Source: a virus (Duplodnaviria; Heunggongvirae; Uroviricota; Caudoviricetes). From it: a DNA stretch of 64,000 nt. The notes under the pieces were generated by a model. It was given only the letters and a program-made list of their open reading frames with translations, did not search any database and was not told where the DNA came from. A program made the position numbers and the translations under genes. The DNA is taken from the IMG/VR virus record IMGVR_UViG_644736364_000008; one strand, given 5' to 3'. Numbering within the stretch: the stretch's first letter is position 1; the number at the start of each line of letters is the position of its first letter. This document shows, one piece after another, positions 1,184 to 43,338 of the stretch.

Positions 1184-1666
1184 ATGGAAGAACTTCACTT
1201 TGTTTACATCAATGCAAATGGTCGTATCGGAGTTCACTCAATACAGAGCATCAGTTATAGCGAAAATCATATACAGGGCATTTGTAAGAACACCGATCGA
1301 ATAAAAACCTTCCGAAAAGACCGCATTCTTAAACAGTACGATTCACCAGAACAAGCCATTCAGGAATGCGCGTCATTCCTCCCCGAAAACTACTCACATC
1401 TCACTAAGCAGTCTGGTCCGAAAAAAAATACATTCGATGTGTGTTTCACCGGATTTAAGAAAGCAGATAAAGAAAGATTGGTTGATAAGGCGAATGAACA
1501 AGGATTAACGGTAAGAACCTCTGTAACCCAAAGCCTTCAGATGCTCTGTTGCGGTTACAATGCAGGCCCATCAAAAGTATCGGCAGCCAGGATGAAAGGC
1601 ACAATCATCATAGATGAGCCTGGCTTTATACATTTTCTTGAAACGGGTGAGATCCCAGATGAATAA
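1184..1666 (+). CDS. Hypothetical cargo protein with C-terminal BRCT-like domain
   Basis: ATG with AGAGG RBS; C-terminal 75 aa (CFTGFKKADKERLVDKANEQGLTVRTSVTQSLQMLCCGYNAGPSKVSAARMKGTIIIDEPGFIHFLETG) resembles the BRCT domain of NAD-dependent DNA ligase; lies between ogr and attL. Confidence 0.55.
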   Translation: MEELHFVYINANGRIGVHSIQSISYSENHIQGICKNTDRIKTFRKDRILKQYDSPEQAIQECASFLPENYSHLTKQSGPKKNTFDVCFTGFKKADKERLVDKANEQGLTVRTSVTQSLQMLCCGYNAGPSKVSAARMKGTIIIDEPGFIHFLETGEIPDE

Positions 1667-13741: not shown

Positions 13742-15442
13742 ATGGAACACTTAAGACAACTGCAAAATAAAACTTCCCTGTTAGAAAAGTACGGGACTAG
13801 TAACGCACATCTTTTATGGTCATTAGGTCTTTACTTAGATGAATCCGATTTTGATAAGCTAGCATCTGATGGACTTACTGATGGTGGAAACGATAAGAAA
13901 ATAGACTTCATTACCGTAATTAATTCAACGTTATTTATTGCTCAGGGTTACTACTGCAATCAGCAAGCACTTAAAATAGTTGCGCCTGCAAATAAAGCTT
14001 CTGACTTAAACACTGCTTTAGCGTGGATTATGGCAGGCTCAGGAGAGTCTCCAAATGCAAAATTAAGAGCAAAAATTTCTGAGGTTAGAAAATTAATTGA
14101 TGATAACGAAATTGAAGCTGTTGAATTATTATATATCCATAATTGTGCCGAATCTGAGCAGGTTAAAACTGAGCTTGAAACTTGTCGTGACTATCTAGCA
14201 GGTAGATTTGCAGACAAAGAAATTGAGGTAACTTACAGAGAACTTGGTGTTAATAGTCTTGAAAAATTGTATATTGCGCTATCACAACAAATTGTTGTGA
14301 CTGACAATATAAAGTTCAATGGCGAACTTATAAATTCTGTACAAGGTGATGGCTGGACTTCACATGTTGGCTTTGCAAACGGCACTTGGCTAAATTATTT
14401 ATACAAAAATTATGGAGCAGAATTATTTTCTGCTAATTATAGGGGGTTCATGGGATTAAATAAGAGAAGAAAAATAAACTCATCAATTAAGAATACCGCA
14501 GAAACATCCCCAAAAGACTTCTTTGTCTTTAACAATGGTGTATCAATCCTAACAACAAAATTCAACAAAGAAAAAGGGTTGTTGGAAGGAGTTTCAATCA
14601 TAAATGGAGCTCAAACCACTGGTTCTATTGGTTCAGTTCAAGATATACAAAAATTAGATGGCCTAAAAGTCCTTTGTAAGGTTATTGAATGTAATGATGC
14701 GGACAAAGTAAAAAAAATAGTCCAGTATAATAATACTCAGAATCATATTACAACCTGGGATCACTACTCTAACAGCACAGAACAAAAACAGGTGGCAGAA
14801 GAATTTTCCACTCTTGGTTATACATATTCACTGAAACGCGGCTTCGAAAATACTGGTTCTTTATTTGGCATTGAGTCTGTTGCTCAACCGCTGATAGCGT
14901 TACATGGGGATTATGTTAGCGCCAATAGAGGTAAAAACTACGTTTTCGATACAAAATCAGCCTATGACAATGCCTTTCATGATTCGAAAGCCCAGCATAT
15001 TTTATGTGCTTACACTATTTCAAAAGCTATAGAAAAAGTAAAATCTCAAATCCGTGCAAAAGAGAATAAAATTAAAGTAGATGAGGATAACTTATTATTC
15101 CTCCAAAATTTAAAGTCTCGATTCTTTTTAATATCCGTCATCGGAGAAATACTTGAAGAATTAACAGATAAACCTTTGAACAAGAAGAAAATAAAATATA
15201 AATATGATACAGCATTATCTAAAAATAACTCTCTGGATGATTTAATCGACCTTTGGACACCAGTTATAACTGCGATATTACCACATGTTATCCGTGTTTC
15301 AGGTCAAGATTTAACCACCTACTTATCTGTAACAGACAACCCGTTATCTATCGTATCAAAGGAAGTTAAAAACATATTAACATCCTTAAAAGCGTTCCAA
15401 CCGATTGAGCCATTAATTACTCTTTCAAATCACCTTGAATAA
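13742..15442 (+). CDS. Cargo protein, 566 aa, candidate abortive-infection (AIPR-like) protein
   Basis: Low-GC ORF on the opposite strand between V and S; contains FFVFNNGVSILTT...INGAQTTGSIG, reminiscent of an NGxQT core; own AT-rich upstream region. Confidence 0.6.
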   Translation: MEHLRQLQNKTSLLEKYGTSNAHLLWSLGLYLDESDFDKLASDGLTDGGNDKKIDFITVINSTLFIAQGYYCNQQALKIVAPANKASDLNTALAWIMAGSGESPNAKLRAKISEVRKLIDDNEIEAVELLYIHNCAESEQVKTELETCRDYLAGRFADKEIEVTYRELGVNSLEKLYIALSQQIVVTDNIKFNGELINSVQGDGWTSHVGFANGTWLNYLYKNYGAELFSANYRGFMGLNKRRKINSSIKNTAETSPKDFFVFNNGVSILTTKFNKEKGLLEGVSIINGAQTTGSIGSVQDIQKLDGLKVLCKVIECNDADKVKKIVQYNNTQNHITTWDHYSNSTEQKQVAEEFSTLGYTYSLKRGFENTGSLFGIESVAQPLIALHGDYVSANRGKNYVFDTKSAYDNAFHDSKAQHILCAYTISKAIEKVKSQIRAKENKIKVDEDNLLFLQNLKSRFFLISVIGEILEELTDKPLNKKKIKYKYDTALSKNNSLDDLIDLWTPVITAILPHVIRVSGQDLTTYLSVTDNPLSIVSKEVKNILTSLKAFQPIEPLITLSNHLE

Positions 15443-24307: not shown

Positions 24308-25717
24308 TTACTCATCTACTCTGATTTTTTGTTTTTTATTATTTTGAGTTAAGACATTTATGGTAATAGATGTATACGGATGAAAGTCAGGCACTATACT
24401 TTTAACCTCTCCATTTTCAAGAAAATGATGTGCTATTGAAGGAAATAAATCAGGATCTACAGGATATTTAGCATTAGGATTATGATACATATTTAAACCT
24501 TCTGCCCATGTTTCTGTAATATCGCCTTCTTTCACTTCAAAACTAAATGCTGCTGGATATAATGCCTCTGGGTCATGATCATGGCAGTAACCACTCCTAA
24601 ATAATCTAAGGTCACTTCTTCCAAAACCAGCCAGTTTTCCCATCCGATTAAACTTCGATATAGTACCACTATTAGAACTAAGGACGGCCGAAATATTTTC
24701 AGACTCATCCAAGAAGAAAAAGCCTGAAGGAATTTCCTTTTTCTCAAATTGATGCGATATAATTTTCTTAGTTGCTAAACTGTAACATCCATCTTCAGAT
24801 TTAACATGCTCATAGCGAATACCATAAAGATACTGCCAAAGTGCACTATGGGACCAAATCATAGAGTTTGGTTCATGAAAATCAGCAATTGCGAAAATTA
24901 AAGGATTCCCCTTAACATGTTCTAGATCCCAGTATCGAGTTTTCTTTTTCAGTTTAGAATAGAGAGAACTTCCAAATTTAATCGGCATATAATTCTCTAT
25001 TTTCTCTAGCAATTCTTCCTTACTTTTAGGTTCAGATAGCATTTCAGATGATTGATTAATATCATTCCCTGTTGGATTAACCGTTACAGCTTCAATGCAA
25101 ATAGTATTACCATACTTACGTGCCACATAATCAGGGGCATTAAACTGCCTATCTAGCCAAAAGTGTTCCTCTCGTAAATATGCGAAAAGATATAACTCCC
25201 ATAGCCGGGCATCAAAACCTGTTGTCTGAAACTGCTCTATAAAATTCCCGTCGACATCCTCAAAATGATTCATCATTTCCTTGATTATCCCTGTTGCAGG
25301 CGACCAGTTCGCATATTTACCAAATAATGAAAAATGATGATGAAGTTTATCTGGTGTAACTATAGGTGTGAATAAATCCATTGCTTTATAAGTTTCATCA
25401 CCTTGTGGAAATACTTTTACGTTTAATTTAGTATGCTTCCGCATTAATTTCTTTAGTTTTGCTCGTGCAGAATTCATTTCTGAAACACTAGTAAATAGGT
25501 CAATACATCTATATCTCCCACTTAAGTCTCTTGCTAAAACAATACCGCTATAATCTTCATCGATTTGATCCAATAATAGTGCCCCTAGCAGGAACTCTCT
25601 CGGACTACAGTACCACTCAAACTCATAGCCTAAAAGTTCAGTATTTGGCATTCTGGTCCAATCAACAAAAGCATTAAACCTCTCTTTACTCATTTTTTTT
25701 ATATCAAGAAAAGACAT
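24308..25717 (-). CDS. Hypothetical cargo protein, 469 aa (no recognisable motif)
   Basis: Low-GC ORF between portal gene Q and cos; no P-loop or nuclease motif detectable by eye. Confidence 0.6.
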   Translation of the reverse strand: MSFLDIKKMSKERFNAFVDWTRMPNTELLGYEFEWYCSPREFLLGALLLDQIDEDYSGIVLARDLSGRYRCIDLFTSVSEMNSARAKLKKLMRKHTKLNVKVFPQGDETYKAMDLFTPIVTPDKLHHHFSLFGKYANWSPATGIIKEMMNHFEDVDGNFIEQFQTTGFDARLWELYLFAYLREEHFWLDRQFNAPDYVARKYGNTICIEAVTVNPTGNDINQSSEMLSEPKSKEELLEKIENYMPIKFGSSLYSKLKKKTRYWDLEHVKGNPLIFAIADFHEPNSMIWSHSALWQYLYGIRYEHVKSEDGCYSLATKKIISHQFEKKEIPSGFFFLDESENISAVLSSNSGTISKFNRMGKLAGFGRSDLRLFRSGYCHDHDPEALYPAAFSFEVKEGDITETWAEGLNMYHNPNAKYPVDPDLFPSIAHHFLENGEVKSIVPDFHPYTSITINVLTQNNKKQKIRVDE

Positions 25718-26624: not shown

Positions 26625-26981
26625 TTAATACAGGTTCCGCCACTGATCATCTTCCTGCAAACGCTGGTTCCGATAGAAGATACGCAGGCCTGCTCCTGAC
26701 GGAATACTGCCTCCGCGAAGGAGTAAATCGACCTCTTTCTCGCTGCCATCAAATCCTCTGGACTTCAGCTCATACACGAGCTGCAGTCGCTGATGGTCTG
26801 TAATTCGCTGTTTGTAGTCTTTACGCCGTTTCGGTTTCACCAGGCGTAACCTTGCTGCCAGTTCCCGGCGCTCTTTTTTGCTCATACTGTGCAGGTAATC
26901 GTGCAACTCCTTGTCATCCATGCTGGTAATGTCCGTTCTGGGGTCCCCATCAGCTGATTTATCTTTCTCCTGTTGGTTCAA
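26625..26981 (-). CDS. 118-aa ORF, possibly the displaced C-terminal part of replication protein A
   Basis: Begins at a TTG right at the A stop; becomes in-frame with A if one copy of the 26-bp tandem repeat is removed. Confidence 0.45.
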
Positions 26982-29065
26982 ATTTTCAGCAAGGGGACAG
27001 TTATTGCCACGAGTCCAAGGGGACAGTTATTGCCACGAGTCCAAGGGGCGCAAGCGCCCTGGTCGGCTGCCGCCTCCTGAATGTCAACGGCCTTACGAAC
27101 CATTTTCCACTTCACCGCATGAGTGCAGATCTTGCCCTCTGCAATGGGTGACCAGATGCCATAAATACGAATACCGTGATCGCCATAGGCGGTCGGCTCT
27201 TCGTTGATTTCATAAGCGGTTCTGATGAGGTGATATTTGCGGGGAACCAGTACGCCGCCCTGCTTCATGATGTAGGTGGCAAAACAACCAGCATCAGCAG
27301 CGGCTAGGATGGCATCAAGGCGCGGGTTATCCAGTACCGGCGCACCTGCTTTTTTGTCCCCCTGTTGCCTTGCCGCCTGACCAGCCAGCAATCGCAGTTC
27401 ACGGTAAGCCTGACGCCCCGGAATGCCAAAGAAGCGGAATTGCTGAACACGATGCAGAGACGCCCAGGCATTAACGTATTCAGCGTTATCACGCAGGGAT
27501 TTACCCGTTTCCTTGCTGATCTCGCCAGCCAGACCACGCCCGTCAATGTTCTTACTGATGTATTTCGCGATGTAGCTTGTTGGCGTACCTTTGCGCGGGT
27601 TTATCAGCTCAGACTTAAAGCGTGGTTCCGTGTTATTACCCAGCTCCTCGCGGTCTTCACGAATGGCAAACTTACGCAACAAAGCAGTAATGGCGCGGCG
27701 ATCTTTTTTGCGCATAAAACACAACAGGTGCCAGTGAACTGTACCGTCATGATGCGGCTCAGCCACCCGCACGCCATACCAGCGTAATCCGGCTTTGTGC
27801 ATCGCCTTACGAAATGCAGCAAACATACCGACCAGATAATCACTGCTTTGTCTTACCGTCGCATTTGTCCAGGTCGGGTTGGGCCTGCCGTTATTTAGCG
27901 TGGAATGGAAACGTGACGGACAGGTGATGGTGTAGAAAACGGCGCAGTCACCGCGCATTTCCGCGATAAGCTCCAGACCTTTAACACAGGCCATCATCTC
28001 ATTGCGGCGATGCGCAGGGTTGCTGCTGCTGGCGTTTACCACGTCTTCCATATCCAGCGTGTCGCCGTCTTCGTTCACCAGTTCATGAGAACGGAAAAAC
28101 TCCAGCGACTTACGGCGCTGCTCACGTTTATGCATCACGGCTTCATAGCTGACATAGGGAGATGCTTTTTTGCTGACCAGGCAAACAGCACGCAACTGCT
28201 CTTCCCGCCATTCGCAACGCATCTTCCATAATTTCCGATACCACCAGTCGGCGCATAACATACGCGCCAGCGAACCCGGAATGAGTTCATAAGGCACGGG
28301 TTTACGGCGGTTTCTTTTCCGACGGAGTTGCTCAAACGCAGGCGGGATAACATCCAGACGCAGGGTTTCCGCTGCCACCTTTTCCCATGTTTTGCGGATT
28401 TCTTCTGGCTTAATGTCATCGGTGGCATACAAATCACCACAAGCTGCATCAAGGCACATGCTCATATGCGCGGCGACAAGGGTAGACAGGCGCTTCACCT
28501 GATCCTGACTCATTTCAGGCAGGATCAGCAGGCCGTCCAGCCCTTCATGGCTTGCCATAAAGCGAAAAGAAGTGGATAGCTGACAGTCGCGTACATGCTC
28601 CAGTCGTTCCAGACATGGCTTAATCGTCTCACGCAAATAGCGGGAATAAGCCTTTGGCCTGCCCAGGCTGCTGAAGTATTCAATACGTTGCATCAGCGGC
28701 TTGCTGATATGGGAAGGCTGGGCGTTAACGTCCGCCAGAATGACCATGTCTGGATTAAAACGCTGCTGCTCATGCGCCAGCTTTGCCCGGCTAATGAGCT
28801 TATCCTGCTCCATTTCGCGTTGGACAGGATCACGGGATTCATTAAAGAAATAACGCTCCCAGGCCTGATCACTCAGTGCCTCGCGGCGCAGCTGTTCCTG
28901 CTCGTTATCGGCAGCGTACAGAGTGATCAGGTTTGAAAGCGCAGAAACCGGCGCGACTTCCGCCGGGTCCAGATAAGGGTTAATGGCCTTTTTCGGGCTG
29001 TTCCATGAGAACGCTGCGGCAGCCTCGTTAAAGCCGCAGCAGTTGTTCATATCGGCATGACTCAT
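26978..29065 (-). CDS. Replication initiation endonuclease A (rolling-circle, P2 gpA-like)
   Basis: 695-aa ORF containing the YIAKYISK active-site tyrosine pair. Confidence 0.85.
26991..27048. repeat. Perfect 26-bp tandem duplication (2.2 copies) at the 3' end of gene A
   Basis: AAGGGGACAGTTATTGCCACGAGTCC repeated head-to-tail, then AAGGGG. Confidence 0.85.
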
Positions 29066-33771: not shown

Positions 33772-34995
33772 ATGCGCAACATTATCGAATTAGAACAGAT
33801 ATCGGAAGAACTAAAAAAACATGAACTATTGCAACCCCCATTCATTGCCGAGGGAAAACTAATTTCTGACTTTTCTAAGAGAGTCGAGTGCTATTTAGAA
33901 TTAATTGACTCCATTAGAAATAAATATCCTGACAACGAGATAATTAAACAAGTAAAGATTCGCACAAAATCAATAATATATTTATCTGATAAAATAATAG
34001 AAACTCTTAAGCTATTTTTAATAGGAAATGTTAAAGAAGCTTATAAAAAATTCGATTTGGCAATTACCAAGTCATCAATGCATACTCATCTTTATAAGAT
34101 GACTGTTCCTCTAACTAAATTATGCAACCCACACACCCCTTTATTTCGCGTAAGGAAAAGTGAGTGCATCCTAAAACAAAGAGAAGAATTATTTCATATA
34201 CCATTTAAAAATAGACATTTAGTTAGCGCACAAAGATTTTCTGTATCCGGTCTTCCATGTTTATATCTTGGAACATCAATATTTGTATGTTGGCAAGAAA
34301 TGGGAAAACCTGACTTTGATAAACTTTACATATCTTCCTTCATATCCGATAAAGAAAATTCAAATATAAGAATTTTAGATCTTGGGTACAATTTAACATC
34401 TGCACTTCGTACAAAACCGGGAGATCTTTGGTATTCATTCGAACAAGGTTCAGATGATGATTACGATCTAAATAATGATAATTTCATGGATCAAATTAAT
34501 GATAAAATTTCAAAGTTGATTGCATGGCCTTTAGTCCTTGCATGTAACTATACAAAAGATAATGAAAACGCAAGTTTTAATAAAGAATACATAATACCAA
34601 ACCTATTAATGCAATGGATTAGTAGTGACAGAAACAAAAATATATCAGGGATATCGTATCGATCAACAAAGATATTAAACCAAAAAGATAGCGATATTGG
34701 GATTAATGTAATTATCCCCCCAAAAATAGAAAACATAGTTGAAACCAATGATACCCACTGTCCTGTTTTAAAAAAAATATTTAGAGTTACAAACCCTGTT
34801 TCCTGGACTGTGTTTAGTACACTAGAAGCCACCCCCTATCTATACAAAAATAATTTTAATTTTTCGACCTATAATCCCGCAAAAGGATGGATTGAAGACT
34901 TTGATGAATCCCTTGTTGAACATTATGAAAATACCACTTTTAGAAAAGTTGAACTCCTTATTCATCAAATGATGAAGTATGAATATTTAAAATAA
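33772..34995 (+). CDS. RES-domain protein (407 aa), candidate NAD+-targeting toxin/abortive-infection effector
   Basis: LFRVRK...AQRFSVSGLPCLYLGTSIFVCWQE...IRILDLGYNLTS parallels RES toxin motifs (YRY...GGRWNPP..FPAIYLADS...E...LAVLDLT in MbcT); low-GC; 4 bp after int stop. Confidence 0.6.
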   Translation: MRNIIELEQISEELKKHELLQPPFIAEGKLISDFSKRVECYLELIDSIRNKYPDNEIIKQVKIRTKSIIYLSDKIIETLKLFLIGNVKEAYKKFDLAITKSSMHTHLYKMTVPLTKLCNPHTPLFRVRKSECILKQREELFHIPFKNRHLVSAQRFSVSGLPCLYLGTSIFVCWQEMGKPDFDKLYISSFISDKENSNIRILDLGYNLTSALRTKPGDLWYSFEQGSDDDYDLNNDNFMDQINDKISKLIAWPLVLACNYTKDNENASFNKEYIIPNLLMQWISSDRNKNISGISYRSTKILNQKDSDIGINVIIPPKIENIVETNDTHCPVLKKIFRVTNPVSWTVFSTLEATPYLYKNNFNFSTYNPAKGWIEDFDESLVEHYENTTFRKVELLIHQMMKYEYLK

Positions 34996-35111: not shown

Positions 35112-35157
35112 ATGTAGGAATTTCGGACGCGGGTTCAACTCCCGCCAGCTCCACCAA
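35112..35157. repeat. attR: second copy of the 46-bp ssrA 3'-end repeat
   Basis: Exact repeat of 1016-1061. Confidence 0.8.
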
Positions 35158-35284
35158 TCATGATTGGACGGTGTAAGGACAACACCAACAAAAACAGGAA
35201 GTTAGAAGTCTCAGCAGGACACCGACCAGACGGTGAGGAGACATAAAAGGATACGCAAAGGAGCCGCGGCTCCGAAGTGAAATG

Positions 35285-35310
35285 AAAGCCCGCTGATGCG
35301 GGCTTTTTTG
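35285..35310 (+). terminator. Rho-independent terminator
   Basis: GCCCGC-TGAT-GCGGGC followed by TTTTTT. Confidence 0.5.
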
Positions 35311-35735
35311 CTTCTTCTCTTTAGCCTGATTCGACACTCTCAATGCGGCCATAAACAACAACCCACTTTTCTTATACCGTAGCCTGTCCCCCTCTTCCTG
35401 CTTTCTAACCATAACAGATGTGAGCGTTTGCTATGAGCGATATATAGTCATTCGTACCCTCCGATACTAATCATCACAGAAATTAATATATTCATTCCTT
35501 ACTGAAAAGCTATGAAGTAGATATATAGGATTGGGGCGCGTATGGCACTGGACAGTTATGCATCTCCGAATATTATTCCGGAGCTAAGACAACCGAATGC
35601 CGCAGCAGGTAAGATCACGCTAGGGGGGCTGGACAGAATGGCTGTTACGCCCAGTGTGAAGAAAAGAAGGCTAAGTATGGTAGAATTTCCATACGCACAG
35701 ACCTTGTTATCCGACTATACAGCCTGGAAGGCACT

Positions 35736-36524
35736 ATGACAAATCTACAACTGGAAGAAAGATTTAGGGCGCTTGAGAAAGATTACGATGCGCTCATTTC
35801 CACAAAATATACTGCGCAGAACGTTCTCACTCACACTATGGAAACCTATGTTGATTCTGGTAAATATAAAAACTGGATCGCCAGAGTGAAAAAGTTAATA
35901 GAGGACAGCTACGGAAAAGAGTCTGATTATTACAATGACTTCAATACTGTAAACAGCAGGTGGTCTTCTAATTACAATACACTGATCAAAAGTTATAAAC
36001 CGTTGTTTGATGCGGCGAGAGATGATCTTGCGCACTCTGCTGTCAGTACTAATACTCCTCAAGAAGGTTCGCCGCTGAGCCTCGTACTTAATATTCTTAA
36101 CAGGTTTCCGACCTTTGTTCGCCAGTTAAAGAGGCGGTACAACGGCCGTGCGCCGCTTGAAGTTAATGATGAGTATGACGTACAGGATTTGATTTATGCA
36201 CTGCTGACGCTTCATTTTAATGATATTAGGGCGGAAGAGTATACCCCCAGCTTTGCGGGCGCGGCCTCAAGACAGGACTTTCTTTTGAAAAAAGAGAAAA
36301 TTGTGATAGAGGTGAAGAAAACCCGTGAATCTCTGGGAGCGGGTAAAGTTGGTGGAGAGTTGCTTATTGATATGGCGCGCTACCGCGCTCACCAAGACTG
36401 CGATACGTTGATCTTGTTTGTATATGACCCGGATTGCTACATAAATAATCCTTTGGGCGTGAAAACCGATCTGGAATCTAAAGACGCGGAAGGAAAAGTG
36501 AAGGTTGTTATTGCGCAGTTCTGA
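35736..36524 (+). CDS. Hypothetical protein with PD-(D/E)xK-like nuclease signature
   Basis: 262 aa; GGAAGG RBS; C-terminal half has DIRAEEYTP ... KIVIEVKKT (D...E-x-K pattern); N-terminal coiled-coil. Confidence 0.5.
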   Translation: MTNLQLEERFRALEKDYDALISTKYTAQNVLTHTMETYVDSGKYKNWIARVKKLIEDSYGKESDYYNDFNTVNSRWSSNYNTLIKSYKPLFDAARDDLAHSAVSTNTPQEGSPLSLVLNILNRFPTFVRQLKRRYNGRAPLEVNDEYDVQDLIYALLTLHFNDIRAEEYTPSFAGAASRQDFLLKKEKIVIEVKKTRESLGAGKVGGELLIDMARYRAHQDCDTLILFVYDPDCYINNPLGVKTDLESKDAEGKVKVVIAQF

Positions 36525-36557
36525 CACGCTTAAGTGTCACCTTACAGGATTAGGTTT

Positions 36558-36606
36558 GCGGCCGTGCCAGCAGGACGAGCATGAAAAAGGCCGCTGGCAC
36601 GGCCGG
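36558..36606. terminator. Long hairpin between convergent genes
   Basis: 12-bp perfect inverted repeat GGCCGTGCCAGC ... GCTGGCACGGCC. Confidence 0.4.
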
Positions 36607-36611
36607 ATTTG

Positions 36612-36905
36612 TCATCTTTGCCAGGTCAAATCAAAATCTACGTGAAAATCCGCAGGCTTAAGCTCGCAACTGCCACCACGCCCAATTAACGACGTTATGT
36701 TTACAACGTTTGAACCTGTTGAGATGGCAAGTTGAGTGTCATCTGTAAACGTGATGATTAGCATTTCAGTCTGATGAACCTGTACTCCAGTTTTCTGAAA
36801 ACCAATCTGGACAGATTTCACCGTTTTCCCAACCATTTCACGGGCTTGATTGATAGAGTAATTAGCTTCAACTTGTAGGTCATTCCTGAACTTGGGTAGT
36901 GTCAT
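36612..36905 (-). CDS. Hypothetical small protein (97 aa)
   Basis: ORF downstream of, and same strand as, the GIY-YIG gene. Confidence 0.45.
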   Translation of the reverse strand: MTLPKFRNDLQVEANYSINQAREMVGKTVKSVQIGFQKTGVQVHQTEMLIITFTDDTQLAISTGSNVVNITSLIGRGGSCELKPADFHVDFDLTWQR

Positions 36906-37115
36906 TTTACATCCTCTTTAGTGAAGTTTTCGCTATTTAAATCAGCAGCATTCCTTTTAAATCACTGGCATGTCAGCAGTGGATAGTCTGAGTGTAACGT
37001 CCAGTGAGGGGAATAAATATTGGTCAGACTTTGCACAAAAGAGCCAACTATCGCGGGCTCTCTCTCATCATGTGCGAAAATTGACCACAATATGAAATCC
37101 AGTTCCATTCCGAAA

Positions 37116-37940
<825 letters not shown>

Positions 37941-38043
37941 TCAATTGACAACTTATAATCCCTACTAGTTAGCATTATGATTTCCAGAGTGAGGAATATA
38001 AAAATCTCTGTTTCTGGCACATAACAGCCCTTAAGATCGTAGC

Positions 38044-38096
38044 TCGCCATCATGGGGTGTCGGGGGGCGGAGGTTCAAATCCTCTCGTGCCGACCA
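38044..38096 (+). tRNA. Partial tRNA-Pro (3' fragment only; anticodon region to CCA)
   Basis: CATGGGGTGTCGGGGGGCGGAGGTTCAAATCCTCTCGTGCCGACCA matches the 3' part of tRNA-Pro(GGG); no complementary 5' acceptor strand (CGGCACG) upstream. Confidence 0.6.
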
Positions 38097-38110
38097 AAAA
38101 TCCCTTAAGA

Positions 38111-38137
38111 ACCAGCCTATTATGGCTGGTTTTTTTA
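38111..38137 (+). terminator. Rho-independent terminator after the tRNA fragment
   Basis: ACCAGCC-TATTAT-GGCTGGT followed by TTTTTTT. Confidence 0.55.
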
Positions 38138-38337
38138 TGATTGTTTTTTATGCGGAGAAATACCGGGGAATAATTGGGGTAAAACACCTTTAGGCTATTC
38201 ACTTAGCCTACCACCATCAAAATCTTTCCGAATGTATCCATCTCTTTTTTCTTATGCAGCTAAAACGAAGTCTTGATACTGTTTATTTACACAGATAAGA
38301 ATAATACTGTCTACAAACGCAGTACAAAAGAAGTGTT

Positions 38338-38517
38338 ATGCGTATTGAGATCTCCATAGCCAAAGACAAAATGACCAAATGCCAAACGGCGCTGTGGACG
38401 CGTTAAAGGAAGAATTAACCCAACACATTGGCAAGCGTTATGACGATGTGGAGATGATCGTAAAAGCCACCAGCAACGATAGTTTTTCAGTTAGACATAC
38501 TGCAGATAAAGATTGAG
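38338..38517 (+). pseudogene. dinI-like gene interrupted by a frameshift
   Basis: Frame 1 [16 protein letters not shown]... stops after 22 codons; a shifted frame continues ...[32 protein letters not shown], together resembling DinI. Confidence 0.45.
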
Positions 38518-38880
38518 CTAAAACTTTCGTTCAGGAAACTCTGAATGATACCTGAGAGTCTACTGAAGAGTTGTTTGTTCACTAGTTAGCACGTAGGAAA
38601 TCATTCAATACTCGCACTATCGGAAGTTCACCAGCCAGTCGTAGCACGTCCTTGCAAACGACGTGCCTACGGTTTCAATCACCTCTCACCATCAATTCTA
38701 TCAATAATAATTAAACAGCGCCTAGACAAAATAAATAACAACAAGTCAACAACCTCGACAGGATGCCGATGGGATGATGAAGAGATAAGAAAGAATAACC
38801 AGTAAAGCCCTAAAACGTCAGCGTTCAGACGCGTTTTTTACTTAATCGGTAACAAATACGTTGTATCATAGCAAAATAAA

Positions 38881-40830
38881 ATGATTGTTCTAAATCAGAT
38901 TAACTCCTCACTTTTGTACAATGTCGCTTACAGGTATACCATGAAATCCGAGACGCTAACTGTCCAACAACTTTTTCAAGACCGCCGACAATACTGTGTT
39001 CCATTCTATCAACGTGCCTATGTATGGACTCAGCAAGACCAGTGGTCAGCTCTACTGGAGGATATCCTAGAGAAAGTACAATCCCGGCTCTCGGGTACAA
39101 AACCAACTCCCCATTTCCTTGGTGCGGTTGTACTGGAACCTCAATCAAAAAAAGGATTATTAGGTGTAGATTCCATACATATTATTGATGGTCAGCAACG
39201 ATTGACCACTCTTCAATATGTTCTGGCATCCATCCGATTAGCATTACGTGCTACGGATCTTTCCAGCTTAGAGGCTCTCATTTCGCCTTGCCTGAAAAAC
39301 TCAAACGAAGACACAATGCGAAATAAAGAAGTAGAACGCTTCAAACTGTGGCCAACTTTTCGGGATCAAACTCATTTTATTCAAAGTTTTAATGTTGAAA
39401 ATATTGACGATCTCCGGGACGTATTCTCTGATAGTTTCACGCAGCATGGTACGTTGCGTAAGCATTTTAATCACCCGCCATCACTAGAAGCATTATGTTT
39501 TTTTACTGAAGCCTTTATAAAATGGATTAAAATAGAAAACCACTCACCACAAGAAAATGCTGTAGCTCTAATTGAGGCTGTCTTAACAGATCTGAAACTG
39601 GTAAGCATATTTCTCGAAGCTGAAGATGATGCCCAAATAATTTTTGAAACATTAAATGGGCGAGGGGCGGAACTTCATGCTACGGATCTTATTCGCAACT
39701 ATATCTTTATGTGCGCTGAGCATGAAAATATTAATGCTATTGAATTATATGAAAATGAGTGGAAGAGCTTTGAAGATAAATACTGGTCGGAAAAACAACG
39801 CCGTGGACGTATTAATAAACCACGCATGGAGTGGCTAGTACATGCGACATTGCAATCAGAAAGGCAACGTGAAATTGATCTGTCTCGCCTTTACAATGAG
39901 TATCGTGATTATGTAAGTAAGGACTTGTCTTCACAACGAGCAGATCTGCAAGTAAAGCGCCTCAAACAATATGCATCACAATATAAAGAATTGGTTGATG
40001 GTTTTGGCACAACCCCCATCTCACACTTTGGATATCGCATCGCAGACTATGATGTGACGACACTTTATCCGCTTGCTTTGTTCATTTCGATAGCTAACAT
40101 CGCTGATGATGAGAAAGCAGCCATGTATAATGATCTTGTCTCCTACGTAGTACGAAGAGCCGTATGTGGCCTGACGCCAAAGAATTACAACAATGTATTT
40201 ATGAATGTATTGCGGCACTTGGCTAAAACGGAAATTTCCAGTGTTGAGTTACGTAATATCCTCAATAACTTAAATGGCGAAGCCTCACGTTGGCCTGGTG
40301 ACTCAGAATTTCTCAACGCTTGCATCAATGCTCCACTTTATCCTGGCAGGCTCGACGCACCGAAAATGCGCTCAATGTTAACGGAACTTGAAAGAGAACT
40401 TTGTCGCCAAGTAAAGACAGAAAAGCCTGATGTTCCAAATCTTTCTAATCTCGATATCGATCATCTTATGCCTCAAAGTTGGTATTCCTGTTGGCCTCTC
40501 GAAAATGGTCGTATGGTGACAAATTCAGATGCTACGGTATTGAACCAAATTGTTCTGTCTGGAACCGATCTTACCCCTGAACAGCTACTGGTAAGGAAAC
40601 GGCAACAAGCGATATCTACTTTGGGAAATCTAACTTTGCTTAACCTTAGCGTAAACCGTTCTGTTCAGAATGCTGTATTTCTGAAAAAACGTGATGCTCT
40701 CATCGTCCACACCAATCTACGACTGAACATTCCACTTATAGTTAAGGATAAATGGGATGAGGATGAAATCCTGGAGCGGGGTAAAAAGTTGGGGGAAATT
40801 GCATTGAAAGTATGGCCAAAACACGATTAA
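38881..40830 (+). CDS. GmrSD-family type IV restriction endonuclease (DUF262 + DUF1524/HNH-like)
   Basis: N-terminal IIDGQQRLTTLQY (DGQQR motif) and C-terminal DIDHLMPQSW ... GNLTLLNLSVNRSVQN His-Me finger motifs; alternative start at 38941. Confidence 0.75.
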   Translation: MIVLNQINSSLLYNVAYRYTMKSETLTVQQLFQDRRQYCVPFYQRAYVWTQQDQWSALLEDILEKVQSRLSGTKPTPHFLGAVVLEPQSKKGLLGVDSIHIIDGQQRLTTLQYVLASIRLALRATDLSSLEALISPCLKNSNEDTMRNKEVERFKLWPTFRDQTHFIQSFNVENIDDLRDVFSDSFTQHGTLRKHFNHPPSLEALCFFTEAFIKWIKIENHSPQENAVALIEAVLTDLKLVSIFLEAEDDAQIIFETLNGRGAELHATDLIRNYIFMCAEHENINAIELYENEWKSFEDKYWSEKQRRGRINKPRMEWLVHATLQSERQREIDLSRLYNEYRDYVSKDLSSQRADLQVKRLKQYASQYKELVDGFGTTPISHFGYRIADYDVTTLYPLALFISIANIADDEKAAMYNDLVSYVVRRAVCGLTPKNYNNVFMNVLRHLAKTEISSVELRNILNNLNGEASRWPGDSEFLNACINAPLYPGRLDAPKMRSMLTELERELCRQVKTEKPDVPNLSNLDIDHLMPQSWYSCWPLENGRMVTNSDATVLNQIVLSGTDLTPEQLLVRKRQQAISTLGNLTLLNLSVNRSVQNAVFLKKRDALIVHTNLRLNIPLIVKDKWDEDEILERGKKLGEIALKVWPKHD

Positions 40831-41080
40831 TGCAATTAATAAAATGATTATAGTGGCCTTACATTAGTAAGGCCGCTACTCACTATTAAATACTTTAATT
40901 TGCATCAAGAACAGCAGTGTCAGCCCTAGGTCTCGGACTTTGTACCGCTTATCTTGTCTTCAAAAATCAGCTCGCATCCTGCACAGTTCAGCGCATTACG
41001 TTGTAGATCTGTGTTCTGGTCATTTGTTGACACACGTACATAGCCAATAAGCATGGTAGATCTCCCTGACAAAAGCAGGA

Positions 41081-41575
41081 ATGATGCCATTTGCTCGTTA
41101 TTTCTGCATTTTCATAAACGTTGGTTTGGGAGAAGCGGCAAAACGGAATGTGGGCAACGGGGAAAACCAAATCCCTGATATGTCTTTCTGGACGGTTACT
41201 GGTGGCAATGGAAATTTTGTGATTCGTCAACCTGACGGGCTAATCATTCAGATGGTTACTGTAAGTATAAGCGGCCCAGTGGCGATGAATGGAATGACTG
41301 ATAATGCTTATGCCATCACAGGTTCTAATAAGTCTTATATTGCCACAGCCACATTGCCCTTTGTATTTCCTAATAAGGTGCTGGGCGTTATCCCTCTGGT
41401 ATCAACAACAGCTTATGGTGGTGTATCCAGTAATATTACAGGTTCATACGCGACGGCGGTTTGTTCTTTTGCCGCTGTCAGGGGGAATAATACGATTGTG
41501 TTCAAAGTCGACAAACCACTGAATGCAGCCTTTCCTTCAGATACCAGCGTCTCAGCGTTAATCATTGGACGGTAA
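41081..41575 (+). CDS. Alternative tail-fibre C-terminal cassette (S'v-like)
   Basis: Gly/Ser/Thr-rich 164-aa ORF in inverted orientation; its codons 11-18 (FINVGLGE) carry the crossover site. Confidence 0.55.
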   Translation: MMPFARYFCIFINVGLGEAAKRNVGNGENQIPDMSFWTVTGGNGNFVIRQPDGLIIQMVTVSISGPVAMNGMTDNAYAITGSNKSYIATATLPFVFPNKVLGVIPLVSTTAYGGVSSNITGSYATAVCSFAAVRGNNTIVFKVDKPLNAAFPSDTSVSALIIGR

Positions 41576-41577
41576 TA

Positions 41578-42021
41578 ATGAACTCAGTATTCTTTTCACC
41601 CGGAAGTAAAAGTTTTTATCTGCAAGAATTGTTTCCAGAATATGAGGATGCGGGAACGCTTCCTGATGATGTTATTGAAATTACCAGAGAAACATATGAG
41701 CAATTTCTTGGTCTGCATCCAGAAGGGAAAGAAATTGGCGCTGACAGTTCAGGACGGCCAGTATGGATTAATTCCCCACCCCCTTCAAAAGAGGATGAGG
41801 TGTTGACGGCTGAAATGAAAAAAATATCTTTGGTTTCAGAAGTCAATACCTACATCAATACCCATCAGTGGCCTGGCAAAGCTGCTATTGGTCGTCTGAA
41901 AGGCGAGGAACTGGCGCAATATAATTCGTGGCTGGATTATCTGGACGCACTGGAACTGGTCGATACTTCCTGTGCGCCAGATATTGAATGGCCTACGCCT
42001 CCGGCAGTTCAGGCCAGATGA
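41578..42021 (+). CDS. Alternative tail-fibre assembly protein (U'-like)
   Basis: 147-aa ORF following S'v; 3' end overlaps the convergent tfa gene. Confidence 0.6.
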   Translation: MNSVFFSPGSKSFYLQELFPEYEDAGTLPDDVIEITRETYEQFLGLHPEGKEIGADSSGRPVWINSPPPSKEDEVLTAEMKKISLVSEVNTYINTHQWPGKAAIGRLKGEELAQYNSWLDYLDALELVDTSCAPDIEWPTPPAVQAR

Positions 42022-42595
42022 CATCCGGCGCTGTGCTGGTATTTGTTGCCGTCACCGCGTCAATGTAATCCAGCACAGCGTTAAGCCGGGTTGTTTCTGC
42101 CTGCATCAGCTTCCGTCCGGCCTGTAATTTCAGCTGAATCAGACCGATGGAAGCCATTGCAGCATCAATCAGTGACTGACGCTGTGCTTCTGCCGCGTCT
42201 ACTGCGGCGCTATGCTGTGCCTCAGTATCGGTCACCCATTTCTCACCATCCCATTTATCGTATGGCGTTAATGGGGCAATAGTGGTTGTATTTTCGGGGT
42301 AATCACCCGGTGCTGTGATTTGTTTTGATTCTCCCGTTTCGGTGTTATAGACGATTTCACCGCGATGGTCTGGCACATATTCCCATGAATTTAAATTCAC
42401 AGAACGACAGATAGCATAACCCGCCTTATGTATACCTGGTGCATCCAGACAGGAATATGCCGGGATACCAACACCAACGGCAAGATATTCACTTGAAGTG
42501 GAAATATATTCCCGAGTTTCACCATCATAGTTATAAACGGTAATATCCCCTGCCTTTGTAGCAACAAGTCCACTATTTAATATTGCTTTATCCAT
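41993..42595 (-). CDS. Tail fibre assembly protein (U/Tfa)
   Basis: 200 aa, about 85 percent identical to the P2-like copy at 8952-9554. Confidence 0.8.
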   Translation of the reverse strand: MDKAILNSGLVATKAGDITVYNYDGETREYISTSSEYLAVGVGIPAYSCLDAPGIHKAGYAICRSVNLNSWEYVPDHRGEIVYNTETGESKQITAPGDYPENTTTIAPLTPYDKWDGEKWVTDTEAQHSAAVDAAEAQRQSLIDAAMASIGLIQLKLQAGRKLMQAETTRLNAVLDYIDAVTATNTSTAPDVIWPELPEA

Positions 42596-43338
42596 TATGC
42601 TGCTCTCACGATATAGTTAAATGCAATGTTGCGTGGACGGGTATCGACGGGGTTAACGGCCACTGTACCCGACACGGACTGGTCATTACCGTTGCTAACG
42701 GTAATGTTACTACTGGTTGATCCAATCCCTACTGAATCGGTAAATTTAGCACCTGAGCCGCTCAAAGTTCCCGAGATGATAGCTAGCTCCACATAAAAAG
42801 TACCTACAGTTGGCTCTTGTGTTGACAGCACCGCACGCCTTGAATCAACGCCGCGCCCATCATCCCAGCCACGAATAAACTCACCACGTAAATCAGGCAA
42901 TTTATTTGTCGGATAAGCCTTTGCCAGTTCCGGGTATTCTTCAGCAGAAAAAGCCGCACCGTTGCATTTCAGCCAGCCTGTTGGCGGTGTGGCTGAAGGC
43001 CATGGAACAGGCACACCAACAGGTAATGCAGAGCCTTCTCCCAAACCAAGGTTTTCGAGAGCCGTTTTCACCGTGCCGTCCGATTTGATATCGCTAAACG
43101 GATTCTTGCGGCTTAACAGCAGCGCACGAAGCGCGGTAAGCAGCTGGTCGTGCCGCGCCTTCTCCAGACTGGCACCGGATGCCTCCACCACGCTGCAGAG
43201 TTCTTCCTGCAACATGTCAAAGTAGTCATCATCCAGATCGGTGGCAGGCGTGCCTGTCTGGGGGTTACCACGGGTAAAACCGTTCTTACCCGCGCCGAAC
43301 TTATCCTTCTGCGCGGTTTTCGTGTCTATACGATGCAT
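42595..43338 (-). CDS. Tail fibre protein (constant N-terminus plus variable C-terminus)
   Basis: 247 aa; shares [40 protein letters not shown]...[15 protein letters not shown] with P2-like H. Confidence 0.8.

Follow-up and report, generated by a model that had tools for sequence, protein, structure and literature searches.

The gmrSD gene and its product

The DNA analysed here (the window, 64,000 nucleotides of the virus record IMGVR_UViG_644736364_000008) contains two tandem prophages. We concentrated on a gene of the second, SfII/e14-type prophage, gmrSD, which codes for a single-chain modification-dependent (type IV) restriction enzyme and lies next to a truncated invertase gene, pin, and 1 kb from a second type IV nuclease gene, CMoRE. 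An earlier note on this DNA, made from the sequence alone, had described a GmrSD-like protein of 649 residues. The open reading frame is exactly as described there: it extends uninterrupted from 38881 to 40830 on the plus strand and carries IIDGQQRLTTLQY, DIDHLMPQSW, and NLSVNRSVQN. The length of the protein, however, has to be revised, since the true start is almost certainly ATG 38941 (M21 of the long reading frame), giving 629 residues. This start is preferred because it is used in RefSeq and in the published sequences, is the first position of the PADLOC profile, and is preceded by an AGG 9–11 nt upstream. The 649-residue reading from 38881 was rejected, as no Shine–Dalgarno sequence is present there. 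With the preferred start the coding sequence spans 38941–40830 (plus strand).

The GmrSD architecture, which the note had recognized, was confirmed by profile searches. Both parts were matched far above the gathering cut-off, the DUF262 part by GmrSD_N (PF03235; residues 28–276, E 7e-34, full-profile match) and the DUF1524 part by GmrSD_C (PF07510; residues 471–639 of the long reading frame, E 4e-20). The PADLOC model mREase_IV (PDLC03655) matched with 1415 bits, residues 21–649 of the long reading frame corresponding to profile positions 1–629 of 629. In the 629-residue protein the DGQQR motif is intact at residues 83–87 and the catalytic residues D507, H508, and N522 are all present; the inactivating mutations that the note had considered in these motifs were thus not found. 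A search of NCBIfam gave no match for GmrSD, for CMoRE, or for their two neighbours. Among the solved structures the sole relative detectable by sequence was 9jfl_B ('DUF262 domain-containing protein', E 3.5e-8, N-terminal domain only). Neither a DNA comparison nor tblastn revealed a carrier of this gmrSD among the sequenced phage isolates, where the closest protein matches were about 24% identical. In public databases the protein is likewise labelled 'DUF262 domain-containing protein', and its exact sequence is found on at least 1000 contigs.

Over its first 25 kb the window is 100% identical to Escherichia coli MS7163, a urinary isolate of sequence type 95 (ST95) (NZ_CP026853.1, from 2839341), and the gmrSD region is 100% identical at the DNA level in MS7163, UTI89, APEC O18, IHE3034, and many other strains. 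The translated protein is an exact string match over 629 residues to UTI89GmrSD as given in Fig. S1 of He et al. 2015. The UTI89 protein (UTI89_C2960, WP_000834402.1), also named the 'UT enzyme' or EcoUTI89GmrSD, therefore agrees with the window in protein, DNA, and neighbours; in MS7163 an additional P2-like prophage is inserted between ssrA and the locus.

The GmrSD enzymes of CT596 and Eco94, the prototype type IV enzymes dependent on glucosylated hydroxymethylcytosine (hmC), share the prophage position just past the tail-fibre genes. Eco94GmrSD has the same length as the window protein and aligns with it collinearly and without gaps (93.0% identity, 44 substitutions). DGQQR, D507/H508/N522, and E271/E273/E278/K280 are conserved between the two, whereas one substitution, I276S, falls inside the ExEx4ExK stretch. 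Compared with the CT596/Eco94-type allele, the UT allele shows 67 synonymous and 43 nonsynonymous codon differences. This pattern, together with the occurrence of the exact protein on so many contigs, suggests purifying selection on gmrSD. The substitutions are unevenly distributed, with 29 of the 44 located in the first 160 residues. Codons 1–160 (window 38941–39420) contain 28 nonsynonymous and 40 synonymous changes, compared with 15 and 27 in the other 469 codons. Judged by these counts, the N-terminal segment looks like a recombinant, more divergent stretch rather than a case of simple positive selection.

As a side observation, an IS3 insertion in E. coli MS20654 (NZ_CP082083.1) splits gmrSD into separately annotated DUF262 and HNH genes, which recalls the artificial two-chain GmrS/GmrD of the original CT596 clone.

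Replacement of the distal part of pin by the gmrSD cassette

Convergent with gmrSD and directly to its right lies the remnant of a Pin-type serine invertase gene (40932–41054, minus strand), identified by Pfam, blastn, and translation. Residues 1–41 of its product are identical to PinE of K-12 and are followed by a threonine and a stop codon. The remnant matches the Pfam Resolvase N-terminal domain, is devoid of most of the catalytic domain and of the DNA-binding domain, and is labelled 'recombinase family protein, incomplete' in RefSeq. The comparison with the attR-proximal region of e14, which the earlier note had proposed, located the same breakpoint: the blastn homology to e14 covers the terminase, baseplate, and fibre genes, the region upstream of pinE, and 122 nt from the start of that gene, ending at window position 40933, at pin codon 41. 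The loss of the invertase, in the note merely a possibility, is hence real, with 41 codons of pin left.

The borders of the inserted DNA could be determined by comparison with strain CX21, whose related prophage, integrated at dusA, is free of cargo (int-dinI-pinE-fibre) and has an intact dinI beside pinE. CX21 aligns to window positions 38272–38685, where the alignment ends 10 bp into the 3' end of pinE, and resumes at 40933–41192; in CX21 the 3' part of pin is situated in between. The gmrSD cassette, which we term slot B, consequently comprises 2,247 bp (38686–40932), and its left edge is the same in YZ3E2001. Relative to the cargo-free dinI-pinE-fibre order it stands in for 422 bp of pin (about codons 42–181). 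The G+C content is 40.5% in 38730–40932 as opposed to 56% in the tail genes. These comparisons show that the 2.25-kb low-G+C cassette replaced the distal two-thirds of pin in a prophage of the ancestral order att-(int)-dinI-pin-fibre.

On the other side of the pin remnant the invertible fibre segment begins. Its left inverted repeat, the crossover site, comprises 20 nt (41116–41135), is 95% complementary to the right inverted repeat (43035–43054), and coincides with the segment boundaries of e14. Alignment to e14 and domain searches show that the 1.9 kb between the repeats (41136–43034) code for alternative fibre C-termini and two fibre-assembly genes, with two Caudo_TAP domains, a gp53-like C domain, and a Collar domain. 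These domains lie immediately to the right of gmrSD and bear out its placement just beyond the tail-fibre genes. The segment, which corresponds to tfaP/tfaE of e14, is inverted relative to its flanks when compared with e14 of MG1655. Because pin is truncated, the segment should be locked in cis. In a 2025 paper it was reported that the e14 segment is inverted by trans-acting invertases, resulting in StfE2, a protein which blocks T2 adsorption.

CMoRE and the left flank of gmrSD

To the left of gmrSD we found the gene for CMoRE (identical with PD-T4-3), a GIY-YIG type IV endonuclease for DNA containing 5-hydroxymethylcytosine (5hmC) or its glucosylated form (5ghmC), at 37116–37889 on the minus strand (PADLOC PD-T4-3, 453 bits). 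The protein is identical in 257 of 257 residues to APEC O1 CMoRE (PDB 9U7U), and its accession, WP_000353910.1, is the one used in the CMoRE study (PMC12923530). In that study (2026) the O157 CMoRE was shown to be such a GIY-YIG enzyme, and CMoRE systems were found to restrict T2, T4, and T6, the APEC O1 system being weak from its native promoter. We found no mention of GmrSD or of the word 'prophage' in the CMoRE paper, and none of PD-T4-3 or of a GmrSD–CMoRE pairing in the parts of the GmrSD papers that were read.

CMoRE belongs to a second variable cargo block, slot A (35310–38046), which was delimited by comparison with MIN6. In MIN6 a single AbiTii gene (L012, 3282–4217) is present instead of the block, with identical flanks, namely the ssrA 3' sequence and a tRNA-Pro relic. 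Besides CMoRE, slot A contains a gene for a DpnII/MboI-like protein of 262 residues (35736–36524, plus strand) with a C-terminal nuclease domain (Pfam DpnII-MboI, E 1e-48) and, beside it, an orphan gene of 97 codons (36612–36905, minus strand). No methyltransferase gene was found next to these two genes, and this may be another solitary defence nuclease. The DpnII-like protein also gave weaker matches to the Argonaute-associated 'Aga helical-REase' models and to the EcbAgaN structure.

At the right end of slot A a 3' fragment of a tRNA-Pro gene is found (58 nt, 38039–38096, plus strand), followed by a terminator (38107–38134). The homology to the prophage end of strain TW14425 begins at this relic, within the tRNA-Pro gene next to yejM. 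The fragment in the ssrA-site prophage is an old att-junction relic of a tRNA-Pro-integrating relative and a trace of mosaic assembly.

The conserved left flank of slot B is a DinI-like pseudogene (38338–38555, plus strand; RefSeq annotation and homology to dinI of CX21), which has a frameshift and an internal stop. Upstream of it, on the strand of gmrSD, is a perfect LexA-box consensus, TACTGTCTACAAACGCAGTA (38305–38324), the one zero-mismatch match in a scan of the whole window; six sites with at most one mismatch were counted, with 1.1 expected. No terminator-like site was predicted from the LexA box to gmrSD, including the 385 bp spacer between the dinI pseudogene and gmrSD. Given the perfect LexA box on the same strand and no predicted terminator in between, SOS read-through from the LexA-controlled dinI promoter into gmrSD is possible. 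The gene must have signals of its own as well, because TW14425 has an IS2 element in the spacer and strain 181.1 is without dinI. A promoter candidate picked out manually (TTAATC-16-TATCAT, 8/12, 38842–38869) was too weak to be claimed.

Activity of the encoded enzyme

He et al. (2015) reported that Eco94GmrSD cuts glucosyl-5hmC and 5hmC DNA, stimulated by ATP, that the activity is lost in the mutants D507A, H508A, and N522A, and that the enzyme restricts T4 Δip1 more than 10^6-fold. In their description the T4 inhibitor IPI* does not affect the UT enzyme, which restricts T2 and T6; RB69 was added in the RB69 paper. T4 is not restricted, whether IPI is present or not. The identity, integrity, and genomic history of gmrSD come from the present analysis, the substrate class and the phage range from these papers.

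On this basis we regard it as very probable that the window gene codes for a functional UT-type GmrSD, which would cut the glycosyl-hmC or hmC DNA of T-even-like phages. By analogy to the family and to Eco94GmrSD, which is 93% identical, the DUF262 (ParB-like) domain at the N-terminus would bind an NTP or dNTP and thereby license the nuclease. DNA with hydroxymethylated or glycosyl-hydroxymethylated cytosine would then be cut by the DUF1524 domain at the C-terminus, a His-Me finger of the HNH type with D507-H508-N522. Host DNA would be spared because the host is without such bases, and the resident prophage would exclude superinfecting T-even-like phages, protecting the lysogen and hence itself.

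Several points weigh against this reading. According to the supplement of He et al. (2015) the purified UT protein, a folded monomer, showed no activity on DNA of T4, T2, or T6, whatever the conditions. The supplement also words the restriction assays as performed in the 'E. coli UTI89 strain', and this strain carries CMoRE close to gmrSD as well as a second GmrSD homologue, UTI89_C5048 (He et al. 2015). In addition, a consensus scan of the plus strand (38600–38940) revealed no convincing sigma-70 promoter directly upstream of gmrSD. Apart from these points, the authors of that supplement were unable to induce the prophage.

It has therefore to be considered whether the UT allele is crippled or silent, and whether the exclusion of T-even phages in ST95 is instead due to CMoRE/PD-T4-3, to UTI89_C5048, or to both. 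The failure of the purified protein, the wording of the assays, the clustering of the differences from Eco94GmrSD in the first 160 residues, the I276S exchange, and the neighbouring CMoRE, which degrades 5hmC/5ghmC DNA and belongs to systems restricting T2, T4, and T6, all speak for such an explanation. On the other hand, every residue essential in Eco94GmrSD is conserved in the UT protein, and both the substitution pattern and the wide distribution of the exact protein suggest that the gene is under purifying selection. Enzymes of this family often fail in vitro; long substrates are preferred, and GroEL came along in the purification. Restriction is credited to 'the UT enzyme' both in the RB69 paper and in the main text of He et al. 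(2015). The reported host range, moreover, is unlike that of CMoRE, because CMoRE restricts T4 and UTI89 does not, and the weak native promoter of the APEC O1 CMoRE likewise speaks against CMoRE as the cause. Taken together, a silent UT allele appears improbable, and we retain a functional GmrSD as the preferred reading.

Spread of the gmrSD-Δpin module and its relation to mcrA

The identical gmrSD-Δpin junction was found in prophages at three attachment sites. At ssrA it is present in UTI89, MS7163, and MIN6; at the tRNA-Pro gene next to yejM in TW14425; and at icd in strain 181.1 (icd/iraM/ymgK), the position at which K-12 carries pin-mcrA. The flank icdC-iraM-ymgK of 181.1 is 90–94% identical to the right flank of e14, and its gmrSD allele differs by one residue from Eco94GmrSD. 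Since the breakpoint is common to all three sites, the alignments argue for a single acquisition of gmrSD-Δpin, which would then have spread by recombination through the conserved flanks.

The earlier note had assigned the locus to the e14 position of pin and mcrA and had suggested a swapping of restriction genes at this site. The positional part of this proposal is borne out by the junction alignment and by the icd-site prophage of 181.1. The swap is borne out only in part: gmrSD and mcrA occupy the same cargo region, as 181.1 illustrates, yet no exchange of cassette for cassette has taken place.

An exchange of this kind would make gmrSD and mcrA alternative alleles of one cassette, swapped like for like beyond pin. 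This idea is attractive insofar as each gene codes for a type IV enzyme of the HNH type and lies at the end of an e14-family prophage distal to the fibre genes, and as gmrSD in 181.1 occupies the icd-site prophage in which K-12 carries mcrA. The breakpoints, however, differ. In the window gmrSD takes the place of pin from codon 42 on and converges on the remnant; mcrA of e14, by contrast, follows the 3' end of an intact pinE in the same orientation. Because position and orientation differ, a cassette-for-cassette replacement of mcrA can be discounted. The alignments, furthermore, showed no homology between the two cassettes or their immediate flanks; the window has no DNA homology to e14 beyond pin codon 41, and hence none to mcrA. 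The PADLOC models are also different ones (PDLC03655 for the window protein, PDLC03656 for McrA). Like GmrSD, McrA is a type IV enzyme of the HNH kind whose gene stands alone at the invertase/att end of a prophage from this family; it comprises 277 residues, recognizes 5-methylcytosine (5mC), and is unrelated to GmrSD beyond the HNH idea. A like-for-like swap at one insertion point is contradicted by these alignments and is very unlikely; as judged from the junctions, gmrSD and mcrA are independent acquisitions in one variable region.

The fibre-to-att stretch as a cargo region

Junction fragments were compared by megablast with 5426 complete E. coli genomes (coverage at least 80%), each junction being counted separately. 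About 2100 of these genomes have the junction of pin with the fibre genes. The gmrSD-Δpin junction was present in 298 of the 5426 genomes, the pin-mcrA-attR junction in 329, many of which are K-12 laboratory derivatives, and the CMoRE-pin junction in 611. In O157:H7 and in strain 107 the gene for WP_000355475.1 (O157 CMoRE/PD-T4-3) directly follows an intact pinE. Further relatives carry orphan genes and a RES-domain protein, a DUF4365 protein, or an orphan at this place, and CX21 carries none. On the evidence of these junctions, the region recurrently carries three unrelated nucleases against modified phage DNA, namely McrA, GmrSD, and CMoRE. GmrSD and CMoRE have the same target class, T-even DNA, and share the cargo region; CMoRE differs in its GIY-YIG fold, in its sensing domain, and in being a tetramer for which no NTP requirement has been described.

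In Shigella phage SfII the interval between the fibre genes and att holds the O-antigen conversion genes oac and gtrABC. Because SfII carries oac/gtrABC there, the fibre-to-att cargo site is the long-known lysogenic-conversion locus of the family. In SfII, SfI, SfIV, and SfV the cargo likewise lies between the fibre-assembly gene and att/int, but it modifies the O-antigen and blocks adsorption, while the cargo of the window consists of nucleases acting on incoming DNA. The SfII stretch that was examined is without an invertase. That gmrSD genes are found on SfII-like prophages, directly after the tail-fibre genes, had already been noted by He et al. (2015). P2-like phages that possess a related invertase (TB06053, ATCC 8739) had no cargo beside it, and the cargo slot is thus a feature of the e14/SfII family and not general to Pin invertases. 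In a search of titles and abstracts we found no description of an invertase-adjacent defence hotspot, which does not prove that none exists.

A more far-reaching reading would combine three proposals: that the stretch from pin to att is a preferred exchange site for type IV nucleases, that UT GmrSD and CMoRE act as a layered pair, and that gmrSD is SOS-inducible. We put this joint reading forward only tentatively and consider it rather less probable than its opposite.

The two-domain design is also found outside this family of prophages. BrxU of the pEFER BREX island has the same DUF262 and DUF1524 parts and shows NTP-stimulated cleavage of modified-cytosine DNA, but it is plasmid-borne, is embedded in BREX, and cuts 5mC DNA as well; in sequence it is very distant, since phmmer with the window protein against PDB gave no BrxU chain even at E = 10. 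That the window protein belongs to such another DUF262/DUF1524 branch, as an SspE-like phosphorothioate sensor or a BrxU-like BREX enzyme acting also on 5mC, is hardly credible: it would agree with the minor PADLOC matches to SspE and to the Orf5/HEC-06 models and with the substrate range of UT, which differs from that of CT596/Eco94, but the SspE matches reach at most 58 bits and involve the N-terminal domain only, compared with 1415 bits end to end for mREase_IV, the identity to Eco94GmrSD is 93%, and the gene is a solitary prophage cargo in a window with no annotated ssp, dnd, or brx genes.

The two tandem prophages

The ssrA gene (transfer-messenger RNA) is located at 698–1060 and is followed by the P2-like prophage (about 1062–35111), which is integrated in tandem at ssrA. 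It is absent from UTI89, where ssrA directly abuts the locus. A 46 bp copy of the ssrA 3' end (35112–35157, plus strand; also present at 1016–1061) constitutes its att repeat and marks the start of the SfII/e14-type region. The second prophage extends from 35158 rightwards beyond the window end, with its integrase about 12 kb past it. Its morphogenesis genes are 97.7% identical over 17 kb to the Shigella phages SfII, SfI, SfIV, and SfV. Compared with the e14 remnants of K-12 the identity is 97.8% for terminase and aaaE-ymfR-beeE and 95.7% for jayE-ymfQ-stfP; the resemblance of the baseplate and fibre module to e14, pointed out in the earlier note, is thereby confirmed at 95–98% identity.

In the second prophage we also observed an imperfect direct repeat of 185 bp (91%), consisting of the ssrA 3' end and about 150 bp downstream (window 35125–35309). 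Its second copy lies at the far end of the SfII-like prophage (L004, 35248–35426), past the integrase and three genes, one of which codes for a STAS-like DUF4325 protein. Att cores are normally shorter than this repeat.

The replication endonuclease gene of the P2-like prophage (26625–29065) is annotated as frameshifted, and because of this the prophage may be defective. It carries defence cargo of its own: PD-T7-1 (PADLOC, 652 bits; 24308–25717, minus strand) is located between the portal gene and the replication region, and a gene for an AIPR/AbiU-like protein (13742–15442, plus strand) between the baseplate gene V and a virion morphogenesis gene. Two further reading frames are situated near the ends. 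One of 407 codons (33772–34995, plus strand), just after the integrase, gave no Pfam or PADLOC match, and one of 160 codons (1184–1666, plus strand), at the opposite prophage end, gave only a weak match to PDC-S48. Both are candidates for uncharacterized cargo at the att ends.

Implications

The literature already covers the enzyme and its family, as well as the place of the gene in the prophage and the fact that this place generally holds cargo. The enzyme itself adds nothing new, being a published member of a well-studied family that is masked by its public annotation name. Modestly new are the description of the pin replacement to the base pair, the counterpart of e14 at the icd site, the recurrence of three unrelated type IV nucleases by pin, the adjacency of GmrSD and CMoRE, and, likewise modestly, the finding that in O157-type prophages an intact pin is directly followed by CMoRE/PD-T4-3. 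Viewed at the base-pair level, the phage paid for the entry of the defence gene with its own host-range switch.

UT GmrSD (2008–2015) and APEC O1 CMoRE (2026) were studied apart and adjoin in the same strains. If the joint reading holds true, UT GmrSD (IPI*-insensitive; T2, T6, and RB69) and CMoRE (T4) could form a layered, complementary pair against T-even phages, and phenotypes of whole strains that have in the past been assigned to 'UT GmrSD' may have to be re-attributed. The adjacency of the two genes bears on the restriction phenotypes of uropathogenic and avian-pathogenic ST95 strains and on which T-even-like phages to choose for therapy against these strains.

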